DNA from: Eubacteriales bacterium
GTDB taxonomy: Bacteria > Bacillota > Clostridia > Oscillospirales > CAG-272
Assembly: GCA_045534135.1 (NCBI GenBank)
Contig: JAZSJE010000135.1
Coordinates: 1-30,211 of the forward strand
DNA length: 30,211 nucleotides
Reading direction: 5' to 3'
Within the stretch, counting starts at the first letter, position 1, and every line of letters begins with the position of its first letter. Of this stretch, positions 4,695 to 17,681 are shown piece after piece. The position numbers and the translations under genes were made by a program. The notes below the pieces were generated by a model that worked only from the letters and a program-made list of their open reading frames with translations, had not been told where the DNA came from and did not search any database.

Positions 4695-5291
4695 CTAAAT
4701 GAGCCCGAGAGTTGCAAAAAGCTTAAGAGCGTCATTTTTGAGCTGTTCACAGTTGCCTGTATTGTTGAGAACGAAATCCGAGTTTTCTACATAAAAGCTG
4801 TCGTCCTTTTGAGCCATTATGCGAAGCTGTGCGCGCTCGGGAGAGAGTGAGTCGCGCTCTATTATTCGCTCAAGCCTGATGTCTTTAGGAGAGATGACCG
4901 AAATTACCGTCGAGCATTCCTTGTGAAAACCTGATTCTATAAGCGTAGGCGCATCTATCGCAACGGCACGGTGTCCGTTTTTTTCGTGCTCGTGAATTAT
5001 TTCTTTGATCCTTGCGATCACTCTGCTTAGCACGGTTGAGTTTAGAAGATCGAGCTTTTCCTGGGAGTTAAATACTATTGCTCCAAGCTTTTCTCGATCA
5101 AGACTGCCGTCAGAAGCGAAAATACCGTCACCGAATGCAAGGCGGAGCGCGTCAAGACATTCGGAGGGAGGGAGAAGCATATCGTGATATACGCTGTCCG
5201 CGTCTACTGTGGGCACACCCATATCACAAAAAAGCTGACACAGAAGTGATTTTCCTGAGCCCGTAGGCCCCGTAATGCCTATTATCTTCAT
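4695..5291 (-). CDS. coaE: Dephospho-CoA kinase
   Basis: IIGITGPTGSGKS P-loop, DAD, LDREKLGAIVF, DAPTLIES; RBS AGAGGAGG. Confidence 0.96.
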   Translation of the reverse strand: MKIIGITGPTGSGKSLLCQLFCDMGVPTVDADSVYHDMLLPPSECLDALRLAFGDGIFASDGSLDREKLGAIVFNSQEKLDLLNSTVLSRVIARIKEIIHEHEKNGHRAVAIDAPTLIESGFHKECSTVISVISPKDIRLERIIERDSLSPERAQLRIMAQKDDSFYVENSDFVLNNTGNCEQLKNDALKLFATLGLI

Positions 5292-5337
5292 GGCTTCCTC
5301 CTCTAAAGCTTCATTTTGATATAATATATCACTCTAT

Positions 5338-5366
5338 ATTATAACTCATTTTTGCTTTTTTTTCAA
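5338..5366 (-). promoter_or_regulatory. Sigma-A-type promoter for the coaE operon
   Basis: Minus strand TTGAAA (5366-5361) - 17 nt - TATAAT (5343-5338), about 45 nt upstream of the coaE start. Confidence 0.75.
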
Positions 5367-5434
5367 TAGCTTATGCACATATTTTTGACCCATAGCATAA
5401 ATAATTTGAGAAGTGCCAAATTTAATGTAAGCGG

Positions 5435-5463
5435 TTGACAAAATTTGTCGTGTGTGCTATCAT
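5435..5463 (+). promoter_or_regulatory. Sigma-A-type promoter with extended -10 for the eutH'-MFS-GDPD-GH92 operon
   Basis: TTGACA (5435-5440) - 17 nt - TATCAT (5458-5463), preceded by TGn. Confidence 0.8.
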
Positions 5464-5488
5464 AATCATAGTAAAATCAAGGATTTTT

Positions 5489-5980
5489 GTGCTTGGAATA
5501 ATAAAATTTCTTACGGGCACAGAGGTAATAGAGGGGCTTGCGACCATTGATGAGGGTGCTGCCGTATGTCTTAATTTCGCTATAGTAATGACGGGTTCTT
5601 TCCCACTGATATACATTATTTCAAAGCTCCTCAAAAGACTTATACAGAGGGTAGACAAGGCGGCGGATATCAACGAGGTGTCGGCTGTCGGCTTTGTGCC
5701 ATGACCCGCGACCAACGTGACTATCTTTGGAATGATGAATGATATGGACAAGAAGGGAGTTTTGCTGAATTTGGTATTTGCCGTATCCGCCGCATTTACC
5801 TTTGCGGGACACCTTGCGTTTACCATGGCTTTCCTCGGAGCAAATACAGCTTACATAGGAGCAGTCATAGTGGGTAAACTTATATCGGGAGTATTTGCTT
5901 TAGCCCTGGCGGCGATTATACATAAGCGCCAGACGGCAAAGAATATAAGTAAGACGGTGCTAACAGAAGAAAATACGTAA
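5489..5980 (+). pseudogene. eutH: EutH-family (ethanolamine permease-like) transporter remnant: N-terminal half missing, in-frame TGA at 5702-5704
   Basis: Track ORFs 5435-5704 and 5717-5980 share one frame. The joined translation ...LGIIKFLTG..EGLATIDEG...GSFPLIYIISKLL...INEVSAVGFVP*PATNVTIFGMMNDMDKKGVLLNLVFAVSAAFTFAGHLAFT matches the EutH C-terminal pattern from memory (NxxxFGMMKDMxxxGKxxNxAFAVSAAFxxGxHLGF). About 163 codons only. Confidence 0.8.
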
Positions 5981-6004
5981 ACACTTTTTAAAGGACGGGG
6001 TTTT

Positions 6005-7414
6005 ATGAAACTGAATTACAAAAGAACGATTTTTGTAGGCTTTGCATTTTTTCTCATCAGTGCGTTCTGGCAAGCGTACGATGCCATTGTGCCACTGATA
6101 CTTACAAACCACTTTGGTATGTCACAGAGTCTGTCGGGTGTAATAATGTCGCTTGACAACGTTCTGGCAGTATTTATGCTGCCGCTTTTCGGTGCGCTCT
6201 CGGACAGAACGAATACGCGCTTAGGAAGACGTAAGCCCTTCGTGCTTTTCGGAACCGTTGCGGCGATAATAAGCTTTATTACACTTACAATCGTTGATAA
6301 TTATCAGCTTGCGAGAATCAGACTTCACTCGATTCCCTCGGATATGATAGCCGCAGGTGACAACGCTGAAAGCATAAGCGCAGTCTGGGAAAAAACGCTT
6401 GAGATAACTCTGGAAAATCCGCTTCCTCTTATCATTTTTATAGGCGTTCTTCTTGTTGTTCTCATATCAATGGCGACCTTCCGCTCTCCCGCGGTAGCTC
6501 TCATGCCCGATGTTACGCTGAAGCCCTTGCGCTCAAAGGGAAATGCGGTGATCAATCTTATGGGCGCGGCAGGTGGAATTTTGGTGTTGACGCTCGGTAT
6601 CGTTTTCAATACCTCGGCTAATAAGCACATGGAATATACGGGCTACGTGCTTTGCGTGTGCGCTATTATGCTTCTCGGCTTTATTCTGTTTATGACCTTG
6701 GTCAAGGAGAAAAAATGGGCGCGGGAGATGGAGGAGGAAAGCGAAAGACTTGGTCTTGATGCTCCCGAAAATACGGAAAACGAAGGTAAAAAAGAAGCAA
6801 GGCTTGGACGCGCAGAGCTTCGTTCTCTCTTTTTGATACTTGCATCGGTTGCCTTGTGGTATATCGGATATAATTCGATAACCAGTAAATATTCGGTATA
6901 TGCATCTACCATTTTGAAGATGGATTACAATAAGACGCTGATAATTGCGCAGATAGCAGCCATAGCCTCATATATTCCCGTTGGCTTTATTGCTTCGAAG
7001 ATAGGCAGAAAAAAGACTATACTTGCCGGTATAGTAATGCTTGGCGGTTCTTTCTTCGTGGGTAACTTTATATCTCCCGGTATGAGTGGAATAGTTATGT
7101 ATCCCGTGTTTGCCCTTGCGGGTATCGGCTGGGCTACAATAAACGTAAACTCCTTCCCGAAGGTAGTAGAGCTTGCGAAATCGGGAAATACGGGAAAATA
7201 TACGGGATATTACTATACGGCATCTATGTCCGCACAGATAGCGGCGCCGATACTTTCGGGCTTTCTTTACGATATAAACATGAGAGTGTTCTTCTTCCTT
7301 TTCGCTACGGTATTCGTGGCGGGCTCATTTGTGACGATGTTCTTCGTTAAGCACGGAGATTCAAAGCCACAAAAGCAGGGGGCACTCGAAAGCCTTGGCG
7401 CGGATGAGGACTAA
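6005..7414 (+). CDS. MFS transporter, GPH/SLC45-like sugar(-conjugate):cation symporter
   Basis: About 12 hydrophobic segments; GALSDRTNTRLGRRKPF loop motif, RSPAVALMPD, KIGRKKTI. Confidence 0.9.
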   Translation: MKLNYKRTIFVGFAFFLISAFWQAYDAIVPLILTNHFGMSQSLSGVIMSLDNVLAVFMLPLFGALSDRTNTRLGRRKPFVLFGTVAAIISFITLTIVDNYQLARIRLHSIPSDMIAAGDNAESISAVWEKTLEITLENPLPLIIFIGVLLVVLISMATFRSPAVALMPDVTLKPLRSKGNAVINLMGAAGGILVLTLGIVFNTSANKHMEYTGYVLCVCAIMLLGFILFMTLVKEKKWAREMEEESERLGLDAPENTENEGKKEARLGRAELRSLFLILASVALWYIGYNSITSKYSVYASTILKMDYNKTLIIAQIAAIASYIPVGFIASKIGRKKTILAGIVMLGGSFFVGNFISPGMSGIVMYPVFALAGIGWATINVNSFPKVVELAKSGNTGKYTGYYYTASMSAQIAAPILSGFLYDINMRVFFFLFATVFVAGSFVTMFFVKHGDSKPQKQGALESLGADED

Positions 7415-7423
7415 GGGGGATAT

Positions 7424-8248
7424 ATGAATCCTTGGATATTAGCACTTTTGATAACCTTGGGGGCAGCGATGTTGCTGTTTTTGATATATCTGATTTTGAT
7501 AGCTCCCGGGAAGAAAAACGGAATTGAAAAATACAAGGGCGCAAAATTTGCCCACAGAGGATTGCACGGTGCGGGAATAGCTGAAAACTCAATGAGCGCG
7601 TTCCGCGCGGCTGTCGAGGCGGGCTACGGAATAGAGCTTGACGTGCGTCTTTCAAAGGATGGGACGTTGGTAGTTTTCCACGATGATACGCTTGAACGTA
7701 TTGTCGGTAGGGAGGGCAGAGTTGACGAGTTTGACGCGGACGAGCTTTGTAAAATGCAGCTTTCGGGCACGTCGGATACTATACCTCTCTTTAGCGACGT
7801 GTTGAAAGCGGTAGACGGAAAAGTACCGCTGTTGGTCGAGATAAAGGAGATGCCCGGTAATTCGGCTGTTTCAAAGGCAACAGCCGAGATGCTTTTGGCA
7901 TACAATGGTCCTTACGTGATAGAATCCTTTAATCCGCTGTCGCTTCATACTGTTGCGAAACGGATGCCGAGGGTTGCCAGAGGAATACTTTCACACAGAT
8001 ATTGCGAATATAAAAAATACAGAAATCCGCTTTATCTCATGCTACAGACGCTTATTTTTAACCGCATAGGCAGTCCTGCCTTTATCGCATACGATCACAG
8101 ACACGCAAGCTGTATTTCGCTTCGCCTGGCAAGAAAAATGGGCGCTGTGACCTTTGCGTGGACCATACGCTCAGCAGAGGAAGAAAAGGAAGCCTACAAA
8201 AACGGATTTGACGGTATTATTTTTGAAAATTACAGACCGAAAAAATAA
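7424..8248 (+). CDS. Glycerophosphodiester phosphodiesterase (GDPD) with N-terminal membrane anchor
   Basis: AHRG, ENS-x-x-AF, IELDVRLSKDG-x-x-VVFHD, LLVEIK and SFNP motifs; hydrophobic residues 4-27. Confidence 0.93.
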   Translation: MNPWILALLITLGAAMLLFLIYLILIAPGKKNGIEKYKGAKFAHRGLHGAGIAENSMSAFRAAVEAGYGIELDVRLSKDGTLVVFHDDTLERIVGREGRVDEFDADELCKMQLSGTSDTIPLFSDVLKAVDGKVPLLVEIKEMPGNSAVSKATAEMLLAYNGPYVIESFNPLSLHTVAKRMPRVARGILSHRYCEYKKYRNPLYLMLQTLIFNRIGSPAFIAYDHRHASCISLRLARKMGAVTFAWTIRSAEEEKEAYKNGFDGIIFENYRPKK

Positions 8249-8271: not shown

Positions 8272-10212
8272 ATGAAGCTTATAGATAACGTAAACACACG
8301 GCAGGGTTCTCGTAATTGCCGAAGATTTTCAAACGGGAACACACTTCCACTCTGTCAGATGCCATTTGGAATGATAGCCTTTGCGCCTCAGACCGACGGC
8401 AGAGATAGCTGGTTCTTTAATCCGGATTTTCCTATATGCGAGGGCTTGCGTCTTACACATCAGCCCAGCCCTTGGATCGGAGATCACGGAACGCTTTTGT
8501 TCTGCCCTCAGGCTGATATTTTATGTGATGAGCCGTCACGCGCCTATTCGGGTTACAGACCGAGCGATGCTGTTTTCGCACCCGATACGATATCGCTTTA
8601 TATGCTCCGCCCGCGCTGTCGATTTTCACTGACAACGTCGGACAGATGCGCTAAGCTCAGATTTGAGTTTGATCTTTCACCGATGAAGAAATACGTATCG
8701 GTCTTCAATATTATCGGTAACTGCGATTTTGAGGCAAGTGACGGATCTGTAAGCGGATATACCGACGGAGCTTGGGATTGTGCCGCAAAGAATTTCAAAA
8801 TGTTTGTGCTGATAAGATCAGAGTTCATAAGGGCAGAGAATGTCATAATAAAGGACGGCTGCCTACATATAGCTCTTGATGAAGATGCTTCTGTCTGTGA
8901 GCTTGATCTGGCTATGTCCTATATAAGTGCCGATCAGGCAGCCTTGAATATGAAGGAGATAGAGAAGGATAGCTTTGAGAGTCTGCGTCAAAAATGCGCG
9001 GAGCGTTGGGAGGAATATCTTTCCCGCGTGACGATAGATACTGACGATGATGACGAGCGAAGGACCTTTTATTCCTGCATGTACCGCACGGGACTGTTTC
9101 CTCATAAGGCCTATGAGATAAATGAGGATGGCGAGGACGTTCATTACAGTCCGTACGTCGAAGGCGCGCGCAAGGGCAGAAGATATGCCGATACGGGCTT
9201 TTGGGACACCTATCGCACACCCTTTCCGCTCTTTAGCATAATTGCCCCCGATCTTTATCGCGACGTTATCGAGGGAGCGCTGAGCGACTGCGAGGAATGC
9301 GGATTTTTACCGCGCTGGGTATCTATTGCGGAGGTTGGCTGTATGCCCTCTACGCTTATAGATTCTGTCCTGGCTCAGGCTGTTACCTGCAAGCTTATTG
9401 ATGACTCTGTCGCAAAAAGAATACTTAAGGCTATGATGCATCATGCCAATGTGCCCTCACCTGATGAGAGATTTGGCAGAAACGCGGTCGATAAATACAA
9501 CGAATACGGCTACGTGCCCTGCGATGCGGCTAAGGAGAGCGTGAACCTCACGCTGGATTTTGCGTACGGTGACTATTGTATCGCGGTTATAGCCAAAGCG
9601 CTTGGCGAGGAGGCTATATACGAAGAATATTGTGCGCGTGCGAGAAGATATGAGAAGCTCTTTGATGCCGAGTGCGGATTTATGAGAGCAAGGCTTGAAT
9701 GCGGAGAATTCAAGAGCGATTTTGATCCTGCGTCATGGGGAGGGGATTATACCGAGGCGGCTGCTTGGCAGACTACATTCTCGGTCCCGCATGACCTTGA
9801 CGGACTTGCGGAGCTTTACGGAGGAAAGGAAAAGCTTATCGCTAAGCTTGACGACTTGTTCGCGAGCGCACCGATATATCGCGTTGGCGGATACGGGCAG
9901 GAGATACACGAGATGACAGAGATGTCAACCGTCGAGCTTGGACAATGCGCTATAAGCAATCAGCCAAGCTTTCTGCTTCCGTTCATTTACGCGTATTTCG
10001 GCGATATGGAAAAGACTAAATACTGGGTAGAAAAGATATGCCGCGAGCATTTTTCATACGGATTTGATGGCTTCCCCGGTGACGAGGATAACGGCACCAC
10101 GGCAGCATGGTACGTATTTGCAAAGCTTGGCATCTATCCCGTATGTCCTGCGGATGACAGGTGGGTGATTTTTGATAAATCTCCTAAGGCAAAAATAAAC
10201 AAAAGAGGATAG
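8272..10212 (+). CDS. GH92 alpha-1,2-mannosidase, no signal peptide
   Basis: LTHQPSPWIGD, GFWDTYR, YTEAAAWQ (catalytic acid), IHEMTEM, SNQPSF and PGDEDNG (catalytic Asp pair). The Trp and His-Glu equivalents of Bt3990 W88/H584/E585 that mark alpha-1,2 specificity are present. Confidence 0.92.
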   Translation: MKLIDNVNTRQGSRNCRRFSNGNTLPLCQMPFGMIAFAPQTDGRDSWFFNPDFPICEGLRLTHQPSPWIGDHGTLLFCPQADILCDEPSRAYSGYRPSDAVFAPDTISLYMLRPRCRFSLTTSDRCAKLRFEFDLSPMKKYVSVFNIIGNCDFEASDGSVSGYTDGAWDCAAKNFKMFVLIRSEFIRAENVIIKDGCLHIALDEDASVCELDLAMSYISADQAALNMKEIEKDSFESLRQKCAERWEEYLSRVTIDTDDDDERRTFYSCMYRTGLFPHKAYEINEDGEDVHYSPYVEGARKGRRYADTGFWDTYRTPFPLFSIIAPDLYRDVIEGALSDCEECGFLPRWVSIAEVGCMPSTLIDSVLAQAVTCKLIDDSVAKRILKAMMHHANVPSPDERFGRNAVDKYNEYGYVPCDAAKESVNLTLDFAYGDYCIAVIAKALGEEAIYEEYCARARRYEKLFDAECGFMRARLECGEFKSDFDPASWGGDYTEAAAWQTTFSVPHDLDGLAELYGGKEKLIAKLDDLFASAPIYRVGGYGQEIHEMTEMSTVELGQCAISNQPSFLLPFIYAYFGDMEKTKYWVEKICREHFSYGFDGFPGDEDNGTTAAWYVFAKLGIYPVCPADDRWVIFDKSPKAKINKRG

Positions 10213-10219
10213 CAAGGAT

Positions 10220-11833
10220 ATGAAAGTAAGAGTTATACAGCCGAGATATTCGTTTGCTCCCAGTGAGGTGAACGACTGTCGTGCCGAGCTGATAGATCAG
10301 CTTAATGCTTGCGATGAAAGCCTGGATTTGATAGTTCTTCCCGAATACAGCGACGTGCCTGCGGATATTCACGGAGCTGACGCTTTCCATGCGGCGATCG
10401 AGGAATTTAATTCTGAGTTGCTCGGTCTTGCTTGCGAAGCTGCCAGAAGATGCGGAGCTCTTACCTTTGTTAACGCGGGTCATCTTACAGAGGGCGGCTG
10501 GAGAAATACCACGCACGTTTTCGGACGTAACGGAGAGGTGCTTGGCAGGTACTACAAGGCGCATCCCGCTCCCAGCGAGGTGAGAGGTGGAGAGAAAGGC
10601 GGATACGGTATGGACGTATCCTACAGCTATTCCTTTGAGGAGCCGTACACCTTGGATATCGAAGGCGTAAGATATGGCTTTATGACCTGCTACGATTTCT
10701 ATTTTTATGAGAATTTCGCATCTCTTGCCAGAAAAAACGTTGACGTAATAATAGGCTGCTCGCTTCAGCGCACGGATACGCATCAGGCGCTGTCTATAAT
10801 CAACAGATTTCTCAGCTATAACACGAATGCCTATCTTATCCGAGCATCGGTATCACTGGGTGAGGACTCAGCGGTGTGCGGTGGAAGCACGGTGATAGCA
10901 CCCGACGGGACTGTGCTTGCGGACATGGAAAGCCGTGTGGGCTGTATTACATGCGAGATAGATCCAAAGAAAAAATACTATAAGGCTGCGGGATATAACG
11001 GAATGCCCAAATCGCATTACGAATACATGGAGGAGGGACGCCGTCCATGGCTTTATCGAAACGGTGGAGCGTCTGTAGTGCCATTTGAGGACGTTATGGG
11101 ATATCCAAGGCTTTGTGCGCACAGAGGCTTCAGCACGGTAGCACCCGAAAACAGCATGCCCGCATTTGGAGCAGCTGTGGCACTCGGTGCCGAGGAGATA
11201 GAATTTGATATATGGGCGACAAAGGACGGAGTGCTGGTGTCCTGTCACGATGATACTCTTGAGCGTGTCAGCAACGGTCAGGGAAAAATATACGAGCATA
11301 CCTACGAGGAGCTTAAGGCGCTTGATTTCGGTGTAAAGCACGGAGAACGCTTCAGGGGGCTTCGGATAGCTACCTTTGAGGATATACTGAAAAAGTTCTC
11401 GGCAAGAGCTATTATGAATATCCACGTTAAGATATGGGACTGCAATTTCCAACAGGATATGCTCAGGGAGATAGTAGCCCTTATCAGAAAATACGATGCT
11501 CAACGACACGTGTATTTCATGACTGTAAATGACAGGATGATAAAGAAGGCAATGGAATACGCACCCGATATTCCGTGCTGTGTCGGCTGGGACGGAAATA
11601 CCGACAAAATGTCTATGGTAGAGCGCGCAACCGCTCTGGGCGCAAAGAAGATACAGCTTTTTAAGCCTTATTTTGATCAGAGCACAGTAGACGAAGCTCA
11701 CAAACGGGGAATACGCTGCAACGTTTTCTGGTCGGATGATCCTAATGAGGCAAGAGAGTACCGCCGCATGGGGATAGATACTATCCTGACTAACGATTAT
11801 CTTTTGATATCAGAGGCGTTGAGGGAGGACTGA
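10220..11833 (+). CDS. Two-domain protein: N-terminal carbon-nitrogen hydrolase (nitrilase/amidase superfamily) fused to C-terminal GDPD
   Basis: N-domain has the intact Glu-Lys-Cys triad (VLPEY, YYKAH, TCYDF). C-domain has AHRG, PENSMPAF, EIEFDIWATKDG, CHD, NIHVK and ILTN. Confidence 0.88.
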   Translation: MKVRVIQPRYSFAPSEVNDCRAELIDQLNACDESLDLIVLPEYSDVPADIHGADAFHAAIEEFNSELLGLACEAARRCGALTFVNAGHLTEGGWRNTTHVFGRNGEVLGRYYKAHPAPSEVRGGEKGGYGMDVSYSYSFEEPYTLDIEGVRYGFMTCYDFYFYENFASLARKNVDVIIGCSLQRTDTHQALSIINRFLSYNTNAYLIRASVSLGEDSAVCGGSTVIAPDGTVLADMESRVGCITCEIDPKKKYYKAAGYNGMPKSHYEYMEEGRRPWLYRNGGASVVPFEDVMGYPRLCAHRGFSTVAPENSMPAFGAAVALGAEEIEFDIWATKDGVLVSCHDDTLERVSNGQGKIYEHTYEELKALDFGVKHGERFRGLRIATFEDILKKFSARAIMNIHVKIWDCNFQQDMLREIVALIRKYDAQRHVYFMTVNDRMIKKAMEYAPDIPCCVGWDGNTDKMSMVERATALGAKKIQLFKPYFDQSTVDEAHKRGIRCNVFWSDDPNEAREYRRMGIDTILTNDYLLISEALRED

Positions 11834-11834
11834 A

Positions 11835-12707
11835 ATGAAAAACATATTTATTGTCGGAAGTATTAATACCGATCTTGTAATAAGCGCTCCATATTTTCCT
11901 AAAAAGGGCGAAACGCTTACAGGAAGTGATTTCTTCAGTGCGCATGGCGGAAAGGGAGCAAATCAGGCGGTTGCCGCAGCGAGAGCGGGCGGTAGCGTCT
12001 TTATGTGCGGATGCGTGGGTAACGATAGCTTTGGAAAGGATGCGATAGACTCCTTGAGGGCTGACGGCATAGATACTCAATTTATCCGTGTGGACGACGG
12101 AGCCCCTACAGGTACGGCTGTGATCGTTGTTACCGACGGTGATAACAGAATAATACTTGACCGCGGGGCTAACGCGCGACTTACGTGCGAGGATATTGAC
12201 AGAGCGTTGACCGATGCGCGTGAGGGAGATATATATCTTACGCAGCTTGAAAACCCGATAGAGGTGATAGGCTACGGATTGAAAAGGGCAAAGGAAAAGG
12301 GTATGTACGTTATTCTCAATCCCGCCCCCGCTGATAAGGATATAGCGCCTTATCTGCGCTACTGTGACCTTTTTACGCCCAACGAGAGTGAAACCGAGCT
12401 GTTTGGCGGAAAGGAAAGGCTTCTTAAGACGCTTGATGCCACACTGCTTATTACACTCGGCTCGCGGGGTTTTGAGATAACCGATAAAAACGGAAGCAGA
12501 CGCTATCCCTGTATAAAGATAAAGCCTGTTGATACTACTGCGGCAGGCGATACGCTTTGCGGCACCTTGGCAACGAAGCTTGCCGAGGGTGAAGCACTTG
12601 ACGAGGCGGCACAGTACGCGTCCCTGACGGCATCTATCGCCTGCACAAGAAAGGGTGCTCAGCCCTCTATACCGACCAGAGCAGAGGTAGAAGCGTATAT
12701 AAAGTGA
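11835..12707 (+). CDS. rbsK: Ribokinase (PfkB family)
   Basis: GSINTDL, GGKGANQAVAAAR, VGNDSFG, QLE, NPAP, PNESE and DTTAAGDT motifs typical of the ribokinase subgroup. Confidence 0.87.
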   Translation: MKNIFIVGSINTDLVISAPYFPKKGETLTGSDFFSAHGGKGANQAVAAARAGGSVFMCGCVGNDSFGKDAIDSLRADGIDTQFIRVDDGAPTGTAVIVVTDGDNRIILDRGANARLTCEDIDRALTDAREGDIYLTQLENPIEVIGYGLKRAKEKGMYVILNPAPADKDIAPYLRYCDLFTPNESETELFGGKERLLKTLDATLLITLGSRGFEITDKNGSRRYPCIKIKPVDTTAAGDTLCGTLATKLAEGEALDEAAQYASLTASIACTRKGAQPSIPTRAEVEAYIK

Positions 12708-12778: not shown

Positions 12779-13153
12779 ATGGCAAATTACAGACGCGGAA
12801 GAATAAACGATGAGGTGAAGAAGGAGCTTTCACTTATACTCAGAGAGGTCAAGGACCCCAGAATAAGTGATGCCTTTATAAGTGTGACCGCAGTTGAGGT
12901 CAGCGGGGATCTTAAATTCGCAAAGGTTTATTATTCCGCTATGATGGGAGATAAAAAGGAAGTGGCGAAGGGACTTAAGTCCTCAGCGGGCTTTATCCGC
13001 CGCGAGGTAGCGAGAAGGCTCAATCTTCGTATGACTCCTGAATTCAGCTTTTATGAGGACCATTCCATAGAGCACGGAGCGCACATCTCAAAGCTGCTTA
13101 ACGGTATTGAGATAACTCCCGAGGAGGAGGAAAACGGTGACGACACACTTTAA
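12779..13153 (+). CDS. rbfA: 30S ribosome-binding factor A
   Basis: RRGRINDEVKKELS, KDPRI, VTAVEVSGDLKFAKVY, GFIRREVARRLNLRMTPEFSF-x-x-D-x-SIEHG. Confidence 0.97.
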   Translation: MANYRRGRINDEVKKELSLILREVKDPRISDAFISVTAVEVSGDLKFAKVYYSAMMGDKKEVAKGLKSSAGFIRREVARRLNLRMTPEFSFYEDHSIEHGAHISKLLNGIEITPEEEENGDDTL

Positions 13154-14135
13154 AACACTGAGCTTTGACGGGCTATGTCAGAGGCTGTGTGAGAACAAAA
13201 AAACGCTCATCATATATCATATACGCTCGGATGCCGACGCGGTAGGCTCTGCATTCGCGCTAAGAGAGCTGATGAGAATAATGGGCATACCCGCATATTG
13301 CGCTTGCAGTGACGAGATCCCCGAGAGATTGCAGTTTCTTACAGACGGAGTGCAGGGAAGCGTGCTGCTCCATGAGGATATCCAGATAGACTACGAGCGA
13401 GTTGTAAGCGTTGATAGCGCTTCCCCCGCGCAGCTTGGAGAGCTTTTTGGACGCTTACGTCGTGACGTTGATATAATGATAGACCATCATGCCAACGGGA
13501 GCATTTATGCCGACAATTATGTTGATCCCGAGGCGTCGGCAACGGGTGAGATCATTTATGCCGTTGCGAAGCGCCTTTGCGAGATGGGAGAAATAGAGGC
13601 TATCCCGTCGAGAGTAATAAACTGTGTCTATGCGGCAATAAGCTCTGATACGGGAGGATTCCGTTACTCAAATGCTACCCCAAGGACTATGCGCACAGCG
13701 GCTGAGCTTATCGAGGCGGGTGTTGACTCTGCCGAGATCAACAGACTTCTCTTTGATTCAAAATCGCTTAAGCAGATACAGGCGGAGGGTGAGGCTATAA
13801 GAAGACTTCGCATGCACGCTGACGGGCGTATAGCATCTACGCTTTTACCGTATAGTGTAAAGTCGGCTATGGGCTTTGAGGACGAGCACTTGGGTACGCT
13901 TATAGATATTCCTCGCTCGGTTTTCGGTGTGGATATCGCATTTGCGATCCGTCAGGAAAGCGAGGAGGGAAGCTTCAGAGTTTCCATGCGCTCGGCAATT
14001 GATTTTGACGTGGCAAGGATATGTGCTGTGTTCGGCGGCGGTGGACATAAGAGAGCCGCAGGCTGCACGGTCGAGGCAGACAGCATACTTGACGCAGAGG
14101 CAAAAATACTTGAAGAAATCTATAAAAGACTATAA
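13137..14135 (+). CDS. nrnA: DHH/DHHA1 phosphoesterase (bifunctional oligoribonuclease/PAP phosphatase NrnA type)
   Basis: H-x-x-x-DADAVGS, VD, DHH, SDTGGF, SMRS and FGGGGH-x-x-AAG motifs; overlaps the rbfA end. Confidence 0.9.
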   Translation: MTTHFKTLSFDGLCQRLCENKKTLIIYHIRSDADAVGSAFALRELMRIMGIPAYCACSDEIPERLQFLTDGVQGSVLLHEDIQIDYERVVSVDSASPAQLGELFGRLRRDVDIMIDHHANGSIYADNYVDPEASATGEIIYAVAKRLCEMGEIEAIPSRVINCVYAAISSDTGGFRYSNATPRTMRTAAELIEAGVDSAEINRLLFDSKSLKQIQAEGEAIRRLRMHADGRIASTLLPYSVKSAMGFEDEHLGTLIDIPRSVFGVDIAFAIRQESEEGSFRVSMRSAIDFDVARICAVFGGGGHKRAAGCTVEADSILDAEAKILEEIYKRL

Positions 14136-17607: not shown

Positions 17608-17681
17608 GGCTGGGATGGCCGGATTTGAACCGACGAGTGCCAGAGTCAAAGTCTGGTGCCTTACCGCTTGGCGACATCCCA
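17607..17681 (-). tRNA. tRNA-Gln (anticodon UUG), CCA encoded
   Basis: TGGGATGTCGCCAAGCGGTAAGGCACCAGACTTTGACTCTGGCACTCGTCGGTTCAAATCCGGCCATCCCAGCCA: 7-bp acceptor stem, anticodon stem CCAGA/TCTGG around CT-TTG-AC, GTTCAAATC T-loop, 75 nt. Confidence 0.98.

Follow-up and report, generated by a model that had tools for sequence, protein, structure and literature searches.

What might a single protein do with both an amidase and a phosphodiesterase active site? The question is raised by an open reading frame (ORF), at positions 10220..11833 (+), in 30,211 nucleotides of DNA from a Eubacteriales bacterium (Clostridia; Oscillospirales; CAG-272). We refer to this whole stretch, which is positions 1 to 30,211 of contig JAZSJE010000135.1 in GenBank assembly GCA_045534135.1, as the window. 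The ORF encodes 537 amino acids, plus a stop codon. As stated in an initial annotation, made from the DNA sequence alone, this is one continuous frame; it has no internal stop. It matches itself, at 100%, in its own genome (at C179). The product fuses a nitrilase-superfamily amidase to a glycerophosphodiester phosphodiesterase (GDPD). We find that this combination is conserved and widespread, and that most full-length relatives keep both catalytic sets. Tentatively, we favour a role in which the two domains act in succession on one small compound.

Two complete domains in one polypeptide

The first domain, a nitrilase-superfamily (CN_hydrolase) fold, spans residues 1 to ~282 (10220..11065, +), including a C-terminal extension considered below. 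These limits are set by Pfam, structural matches and stand-alone homologues. Within them, the Pfam model PF00795 matches residues 23-249 (66.4 bits against a cutoff of 23.2; E = 3e-18). The second domain, a GDPD TIM barrel, spans residues ~288-537 (11081..11830, +), and is delimited by Pfam and by a structural match to 2pz0. The Pfam model PF03009 covers residues 301-526 and scores 129.7 bits against a cutoff of 23.6 (E = 2.6e-37). These scores, together with the conserved residues described below, bear out the original description of the protein as a nitrilase-superfamily and GDPD fusion.

An AlphaFold2 model, built from an alignment of the family, has a mean predicted local distance difference test (pLDDT) score of 91.6 and a predicted template modelling (pTM) score of 0.59. 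Within the amidase half, most of residues 1-270 have pLDDT above 90. In this model, each domain is confident and the mutual orientation of the two is not. Structural comparison, with VIA-align, places nitrilase-fold amidases over model residues 1 to 276-291, with Z scores of 25-27. The matched folds are those of the NitFhit Nit domain (1ems), a Pyrococcus horikoshii amidase (6ypa), Nit2 (2w1v), Nit3 (1f89), a Nesterenkonia amidase and formamidases. Hence, given Z scores of this size to many solved members, the model has the four-layer alpha-beta-beta-alpha fold of nitrilases. GDPD structures align from model residues 284-295 to 534-537. The best of these, 2pz0, covers residues 295..535 (Z 32.7, root-mean-square deviation 1.5 Å over 237 residues, 28% identity). 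Among the chains listed in our sequence and structure comparisons, no solved chain covers both halves.

The fusion protein has no hydrophobic segment. The maximum value in a 19-residue Kyte-Doolittle window is 0.98, and there is neither a transmembrane segment nor a signal peptide. Across 167 family members, a signal-peptide-like extension was found in only two, both in one small clade. Judged by these features, the family is essentially cytoplasmic. Note that, in the clade concerned (P0121 and P0166), the N-terminal extension is 23-25 residues long, and the GDPD site of P0166 has also decayed. A few members of this clade may be exported.

The catalytic residues are conserved and the GDPD site is lost repeatedly

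Conservation was counted in 162 full-length family members, a set weighted towards 120 close homologues. All codons given below are on the forward (+) strand. The initial annotation had picked out LPEY, YKAH and CYD as the Glu-Lys-Cys motifs of the amidase, and all three are present. The putative catalytic base, Glu42, lies in LPEY (motif start 40; codon 10343..10345), and is glutamate in 157/162 members. Lys113, in YKAH (motif start 112; 10556..10558), is kept in 158/162. A second catalytic glutamate, Glu120 (10577..10579), can be added to the earlier list and is kept in 157/162. Both Lys113 and Glu120 are invariant in a 32-sequence alignment. The nucleophile, Cys157, is in TCYD (CYD start 157; 10688..10690), and is again found in 157/162. 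The tetrad as a whole is preserved in 156 of the 162.

The AHRG, CHD and E-x-D motifs ascribed to the GDPD are likewise all there. The catalytic residues His301 and Arg302, in AHRG (start 300; 11120..11125), are each kept in 148/162 members, as is the second catalytic histidine, His343, in CHD (start 342; 11246..11248). The E-x-D metal ligands, Glu328 and Asp330, form part of EFD (start 328; 11201..11209) and are kept in 151/162 and 153/162 members, respectively. The canonical GDPD metal triad is Glu-Asp-Glu. Here, Glu328 and Asp330 are present and the third position is His402 (His402-Val-Lys404, 11423..11431). In a phmmer alignment, this is the change from NIEIK, in 2pz0, to NIHVK. Histidine occurs here in 154 fusion-length rows, and 29 of the 35 stand-alone GDPD sub-clade members have it too, as do those fused to HAD or PF00144 domains. 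By this comparison, His402 is a trait of the whole GDPD sub-clade and not a lesion. Since histidine can bind metal, this is probably a variant metal site, rather than a dead one. Both active sites of the window's fusion protein are, on the evidence of their residues, intact, as had been proposed.

Both catalytic sets are kept in 142 of the 162 full-length members. A further 14 keep the amidase tetrad and have a degenerate GDPD site; P0130 is among them by virtue of Asp344 to Asn alone. The opposite pattern, an intact GDPD with a degenerate amidase, occurs in one genuine family member only (P0140). Four more apparent cases (P0201, P0234, P0238 and P0242) are just 19-23% identical and probably fall outside the family. 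Two of these, P0201 and P0234, are tandem-GDPD proteins. When the GDPD-degenerate label is placed on a tree, from a quick maximum-likelihood search, it has to change 11 times, and well-supported branches demand at least 6 of these changes. The decayed members retain the GDPD domain, the amidase tetrad, and a segment containing Arg274, Pro276 and Tyr279. The amidase appears, from these patterns, to be the constant activity of the family. Logically, a GDPD domain that is kept after loss of catalysis should have a non-catalytic role, such as binding or assembly.

The segment between the domains belongs mostly to the amidase

The initial annotation described a 'distinctive linker' joining the domains. 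The sequence quoted is present, but most of it is amidase fold. Thus, residues 250-282 (10967..11065, +) form a conserved C-terminal extension of that fold, containing Arg274, Pro276, Trp277 and Tyr279, as judged by conservation and stand-alone homologues. In the full-length family, Arg274 is kept in 157/162 members, Pro276 in 160/162 and Tyr279 in 157/162. We assign the segment to the amidase because structural matches run to residues 276-291, and because stand-alone homologues of the N-terminal half, which are 265-288 amino acids long, carry it too. Stand-alone homologues of the GDPD half mostly begin just ~10-20 residues ahead of the YPRxCAHRG motif. The true connector between the domains is only a few residues.

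A hinge at residues 276-284 (11045..11071, +), which includes the conserved Pro276, Trp277 and Tyr279, is the sole segment of the model with pLDDT below 50. A tail that is conserved, yet unmodelled, suggests a contact that is absent from the monomer prediction. For example, it could form a subunit interface, as in other nitrilase-superfamily oligomers.

The fusion is widespread, patchy and often duplicated

A search of 5.8 billion proteins gave 3159 matches among the 8000 candidates scored. The best-listed 120 are all 535-572 amino acids long, share 66-84% identity with the query over 99-100% of its length, and contain PF00795 plus PF03009. Agreement of this kind goes far past what chance could give. 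Full-length, collinear members reach down to ~30% identity in a search of 1.84 billion representatives, clustered at 50% identity. In the ESM Atlas, 13 clusters of at least 50 members have the fusion architecture, all with automatic names only. GTDB contigs, with one genome per species, contain 202 stretches encoding a relative, and the loci studied here are 80 of these. The 80 loci are in metagenome-assembled genomes (MAGs) from roe deer, sheep, goat, water deer, cattle, horse and human-associated samples, produced by varied studies and assemblers. Copies that are 58-63% identical, at L068 and L028, are on contigs of MAGs labelled Kiritimatiellia and Acidiphilium. These are either mis-binned contigs or transfers out of the Clostridia.

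Closer to the window, a search with the full protein found the fusion in 8 of 24 other genomes of the same genus, and in 2 of 16 from other families of the order. A profile of the N-terminal half detected relatives in 20 of 250 genomes drawn evenly from the class (~8%), representing 13 of 157 genera, with the window's own genome counted. The positive genomes are mostly from herbivore and human gut metagenomes. We conclude that the fusion gene is accessory, and that its distribution is wide but patchy.

Several genomes keep two fusion copies. The window's own MAG (1.63 Mb, 72% complete, 255 contigs) holds a second full-length paralogue with 53% identity. In total, this genome has 13 matches to the fusion protein: the two fusions, one weak match to the amidase half, and 10 to the GDPD half, with the window's stand-alone GDPD included. 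Ten such matches represent many phosphodiesterases for a small genome. A tandem pair is present at L080:6526-9787, where the copies are 65% and 60% identical to the query with 40 bp between the matches. Contig C9 of genome G023 also has two copies (4797-6401 and 60262-61839). At L111:702-2325 (-), in genome G049, the fusion is split into overlapping ORFs of 412 and 136 amino acids, within the GDPD half, by a frameshift or a sequencing error.

A candidate two-step hydrolase

The reading that we prefer, with a little less than even confidence, is that the fusion is a soluble, cytoplasmic two-step hydrolase, for a small compound in which a glycerophosphodiester is combined with an acyl or amide group. 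The N-terminal domain would hydrolyse a non-peptide amide, or possibly an acyl C-N or C-O bond of a related type. If it works as nitrilase-superfamily amidases do, attack of Cys157 on the carbonyl would produce a thio-acyl enzyme. Glu42 would be the base, while Lys113 and Glu120 would position and polarise the substrate. The GDPD barrel would cleave a glycerophosphodiester-type bond using metal-assisted acid-base catalysis, as do characterised GDPDs. The residues involved would be His301, His343 and Arg302, with Glu328, Asp330 and, unusually, His402 as metal ligands. The two steps would occur in succession, on a compound that is imported or generated internally. Examples might be a fragment of a wall polymer, or a glycerophospho head group with an acyl group on nitrogen or elsewhere. 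In this scheme, the amidase would be constant, and the GDPD domain would recognise the phospho-alcohol part and, in most members, cleave it. Note that we infer any activity as an enzyme, as well as which step comes first and what the substrate is.

The initial annotation had argued, from the fusion alone, for a substrate with both an amide and a phosphodiester, and this is plausible. Further support comes from maintenance of the fusion over long distances, to ~30% identity, and from the independent pairing of this GDPD sub-clade with another acyl-hydrolase fold. Retention of the GDPD domain after catalytic decay also fits, if the domain additionally binds substrate. We can extend this argument, more tentatively still. 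Possibly, acylated or amidated glycerophosphodiesters, such as N-acyl-glycerophospho head groups or acylated wall-polymer fragments, are an unrecognised gut nutrient, for which the fusion is a dedicated two-step cytoplasmic hydrolase with a GDPD barrel that doubles as a recognition module. The latter would explain survival of the domain through at least 6 independent catalytic losses.

Several results weigh against our preferred reading. First, the AlphaFold2 model gives no confident prediction of inter-domain packing (pTM 0.59), and nothing supports channelling. Second, the protein falls far short of NCBIfam equivalog cutoffs for deaminated glutathione amidase (34.1 against 355), formamidase (39.6 against 406), aliphatic amidase (24 against 427) or Lnt (22.2 against 132.9). 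Third, the case of NitFhit warns that domains can be fused without sharing a substrate. Finally, gene context is unhelpful. The window's fusion has neighbours encoding an MFS transporter, another GDPD, a GH92 glycoside hydrolase and a PfkB-family kinase. These are beside the fusion in 0/80 other loci, according to tblastn, in a set that leaves out the closest relatives (78-84% identity, on metagenome contigs). In two-round hidden Markov model (HMM) searches, the commonest neighbouring family, AraC, is in 16/81 loci and all others are in 7 or fewer. Furthermore, no GDPD gene adjoins any of three stand-alone N-terminal halves (L095, L116 and L127).

Two unrelated activities, or an ester substrate

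Much of the same evidence is compatible with two independent activities on one polypeptide, the main rival, which we consider somewhat unlikely. Here, the GDPD would scavenge ordinary glycerophosphodiesters, for glycerol-3-phosphate, and the amidase would hydrolyse some small amide with no link to these, much as omega-amidases or carbamoylases do. The gain would be co-expression or a common oligomer. In favour, the closest relatives of the amidase half include small-molecule amidases (among them yeast Nit3, mouse Nit2, a D-carbamoylase and an amidase with bound glutaramide), and the GDPD half is nearest to ordinary GDPDs such as 2pz0 and UgpQ-like 2otd. Both halves also exist as stand-alone, non-adjacent genes. 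The lack of a conserved pathway partner, and of confidently predicted inter-domain packing, point the same way. However, a fusion kept to ~30% identity, in many genera, is hard to explain without a functional link. Fusion of the same GDPD sub-clade to a second acyl-hydrolase fold, and retention of the GDPD domain after catalytic loss, also count against independence.

In an ester variant of the two-step scheme, Cys157 would accept an O-linked acyl group, as in the first half-reaction of Lnt, and the GDPD would then free glycerol-3-phosphate. Substrates could include a lysophospholipid, an aminoacylated glycerophosphoglycerol or a D-alanylated teichoic-acid fragment. We regard this as unlikely. 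In its favour, a protein exists in which PF00144, a serine beta-lactamase-fold esterase or amidase, is fused to a GDPD that is 52% identical to the one here. There is also a weak match to Lnt (TIGR00546, E = 6.8e-5). Moreover, solved GDPD-fold relatives include Bacillus subtilis GlpQ, a Staphylococcus aureus lysophosphatidylglycerol phospholipase D and GDPD domains of phage tails. Two facts about teichoic acids also suit an ester substrate: the wall form is broken down by GlpQ, and FmtA, a PF00144 protein, strips them of D-Ala esters. Conversely, the Lnt score of 22 bits, against a cutoff of 132.9, is no better than matches to true amidases. The closest structural relatives are all C-N hydrolases, and the protein is cytoplasmic with no membrane segment.

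The gene neighbourhood and the proposed lipid-anchor substrates

In the window, the fusion comes fourth in a tightly packed set of five co-directional genes, separated by gaps of 1-23 nucleotides. The first encodes an MFS transporter (6005..7414, +). It is followed by the gene for a stand-alone GDPD (7424..8248, +), with the canonical Glu-x-Lys and an N-terminal membrane anchor (Kyte-Doolittle value of 2.86 at residue 8). The third gene (8272..10212, +) encodes a GH92 glycoside hydrolase, assigned by Pfam and NCBIfam, of 646 amino acids. It has no signal peptide and aligns to positions 36-680 of the 749-position TIGR01180 model. Downstream of the fusion is a PfkB-family kinase gene (11835..12707, +). 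The product is a probable ribokinase, since the TIGR02152 cutoff of 299.65 bits is just reached (304.1 bits). Reading the DNA sequence, a Shine-Dalgarno-like AGAGGA (10204..10209, +) is 10 nucleotides upstream of the fusion ATG, and the GH92 stop codon, TAG, is between the two (10210-10212). The ribosome-binding site of the kinase gene, GGGAGGA (11823-11829), sits within the last codons of the fusion.

This local arrangement is striking but should not be read as a conserved pathway. As in the 80 loci already mentioned, tblastn found none of the four partners beside the fusion in five further loci of the same genus (0/5), with 15-19 kb of sequence. Among 30 other genomes of the genus, just one was found to have a GH92 orthologue (51% identity), and no match to the fusion came from it. 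Clustering of 912 flanking ORFs produced no cluster present in more than 12 of 77 loci. Similarly, no Pfam family occurs more than three times among 135 immediate neighbours. Those in 7 or fewer of the 81 loci include MBL-fold proteins, an ABC exporter, an APH-like kinase, a C26 hydrolase, GH20, NIF3, a sialate esterase, GH92-like proteins (6/81 in the sensitive search) and a second GDPD. Hence, with no partner in more than ~20% of loci, a conserved operon partner was rejected. The loose theme of these neighbourhoods is glycan and ester degradation islands. We conclude that gene context gives no support for a dedicated pathway.

Some further features of these regions were noted. The paralogue's contig has GH4, GH43, AraC and another GDPD. 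Two ORFs there, of 273 and 645 amino acids, were considered as a duplicated operon and discarded: the GDPD differs in type, and the 645-residue product is no relative of GH92. In the window, a 133-amino-acid ORF (5422-5826, -) is divergent from the MFS gene, in a regulator-like position, and gave no Pfam match up to E = 0.01. Directly after the kinase gene are the housekeeping gene rbfA and a DHH/DHHA1 gene (12779-14135, +). The rbfA and DHH genes are also immediately upstream of the fusion in L039 and L042, which is a weak recurrence of the chromosomal neighbourhood. Scans of the window for promoters and terminators gave results at chance level. An Rfam scan found nothing near the operon; the only match in the window is a tRNA gene (17610-17681, -; 61.6 bits).

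The initial annotation suggested, as substrates, the bridge of glycosylphosphatidylinositol (GPI) anchors or phosphoceramides. Taken with the operon, the proposal becomes degradation of GPI-anchor bridges, mannosyl-inositol-phosphoceramide or similar mannosylated lipid conjugates. The fusion is certainly packed between a PfkB gene and one for GH92, a family annotated as alpha-mannosidases, after genes for MFS and a membrane-anchored GDPD. The gaps and ribosome-binding sites are also consistent with co-translation. Even so, such substrates are very unlikely and fit poorly. The fusion protein is soluble and cytoplasmic, which counts against GPI or membrane-lipid substrates. Since both it and GH92 lack signal peptides, any membrane or protein-linked substrate could reach them only as soluble fragments that are first imported. 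The nearest relatives of the amidase act on small polar amides, and those of the GDPD are ordinary enzymes. Finally, the partners are absent beside the fusion in all 80 other loci and all five same-genus loci, and GH92 is as rare as described above.

That sequencing or assembly error merged neighbouring genes can be dismissed: the sole point in favour is a fragmented source MAG (255 contigs, 72% complete), while the fusion has 202 species-representative matches from varied studies and assemblers, 120 best-listed proteins that are collinear at full length, a second full-length paralogue in the same genome, and a junction segment that is itself conserved. The fusion is therefore genuine, as initially claimed.

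Significance

The chemistry is not new, since each half of the protein comes from a well-known enzyme family. The combination is nonetheless a conserved and widespread family, for which we found no tested member. If the substrate were discovered, thousands of gut-microbiome proteins now called 'hypothetical' would gain a function. A route by which acylated phosphodiesters are scavenged, from lipids or cell-wall polymers, could also come to light. In addition, the His-for-Glu metal site, together with repeated GDPD decay, provides a natural case of an enzyme domain becoming a binding module.

Comparison with known enzymes

The best profile matches for the N-terminal half are an uncharacterised Staphylococcus aureus CN hydrolase (3p8k; 6e-18) and yeast Nit3 (1f89; 2e-17), followed by Nit2 and D-carbamoylases. 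Members of the Nit/omega-amidase branch (1f89 and mouse Nit2, 2w1v), the P. horikoshii amidase PH0642 (1j31 and 6ypa) and 3p8k have the same fold, with Z scores of 25.8-27.3 over 246-253 residues. Structural relatives also include a glutaramide-bound amidase, yeast Nit2 with alpha-ketoglutarate, and formamidases; the half ties with many small-molecule amidases. These enzymes share the Glu-Lys-Glu-Cys tetrad, and a similar C-Y-D..F.E motif after the cysteine, with the fusion. However, identity is only 15-20%, and the fusion adds the conserved C-terminal extension and the GDPD.

The GDPD half is nearest to 2pz0, from Thermoanaerobacter tengcongensis, and UgpQ-like 2otd. These cytosolic enzymes and the fusion GDPD have the same TIM barrel, His/Arg/His residues, E-x-D and the lysine of the x-K motif, and none has a signal peptide. 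In contrast with 2pz0 and 2otd, the fusion has His402 in place of glutamate, and an attached amidase. The protein falls short of the UgpQ equivalog, NF006989, scoring 131.6 bits where the cutoff is 264.

NitFhit, from Caenorhabditis elegans (1ems), the classic Rosetta-stone example, similarly has a Nit domain N-terminal to a hydrolase of P-O bonds (Nit domain Z 27.3; profile E = 1e-10). The partner is a HIT-fold dinucleoside polyphosphate hydrolase and not a GDPD barrel. NitFhit is eukaryotic, and there is no evidence that it and the present protein are kin as fusions.

Closer parallels exist on the GDPD side. P0182 (663 amino acids) has a PF00144 beta-lactamase-fold domain joined to a GDPD that is 52% identical to the one here, with histidine at the third ligand position. 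P0180 (486 amino acids) joins a HAD phosphatase to a GDPD with the same histidine; the GDPD domains of P0180 and P0182 are 51-52% identical to that of the present protein. Both proteins are uncharacterised and, as in the fusion, have a GDPD attached to another hydrolase, although the partner folds differ. Because these PF00144 and HAD fusions exist, the GDPD sub-clade must have joined an acyl- or phospho-hydrolase more than once. The His-x-Lys sub-clade is also found fused to further GDPD copies. Separately, we note Barstar-GDPD (P0228) and DUF1667-GDPD (P0257) fusions.

The initial annotation knew of no characterised enzyme with this architecture, and we reach the same view: no listed solved chain covers both halves, and open-access papers and preprints gave no published account of the fusion. 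Public names, such as 'hypothetical protein' (NCBI) and 'GDPD/predicted amidohydrolase', are automatic. We conclude that the fusion family, while visible in databases and with no experimental characterisation found, is not a new kind of system but an architectural variant of two known kinds of enzyme.

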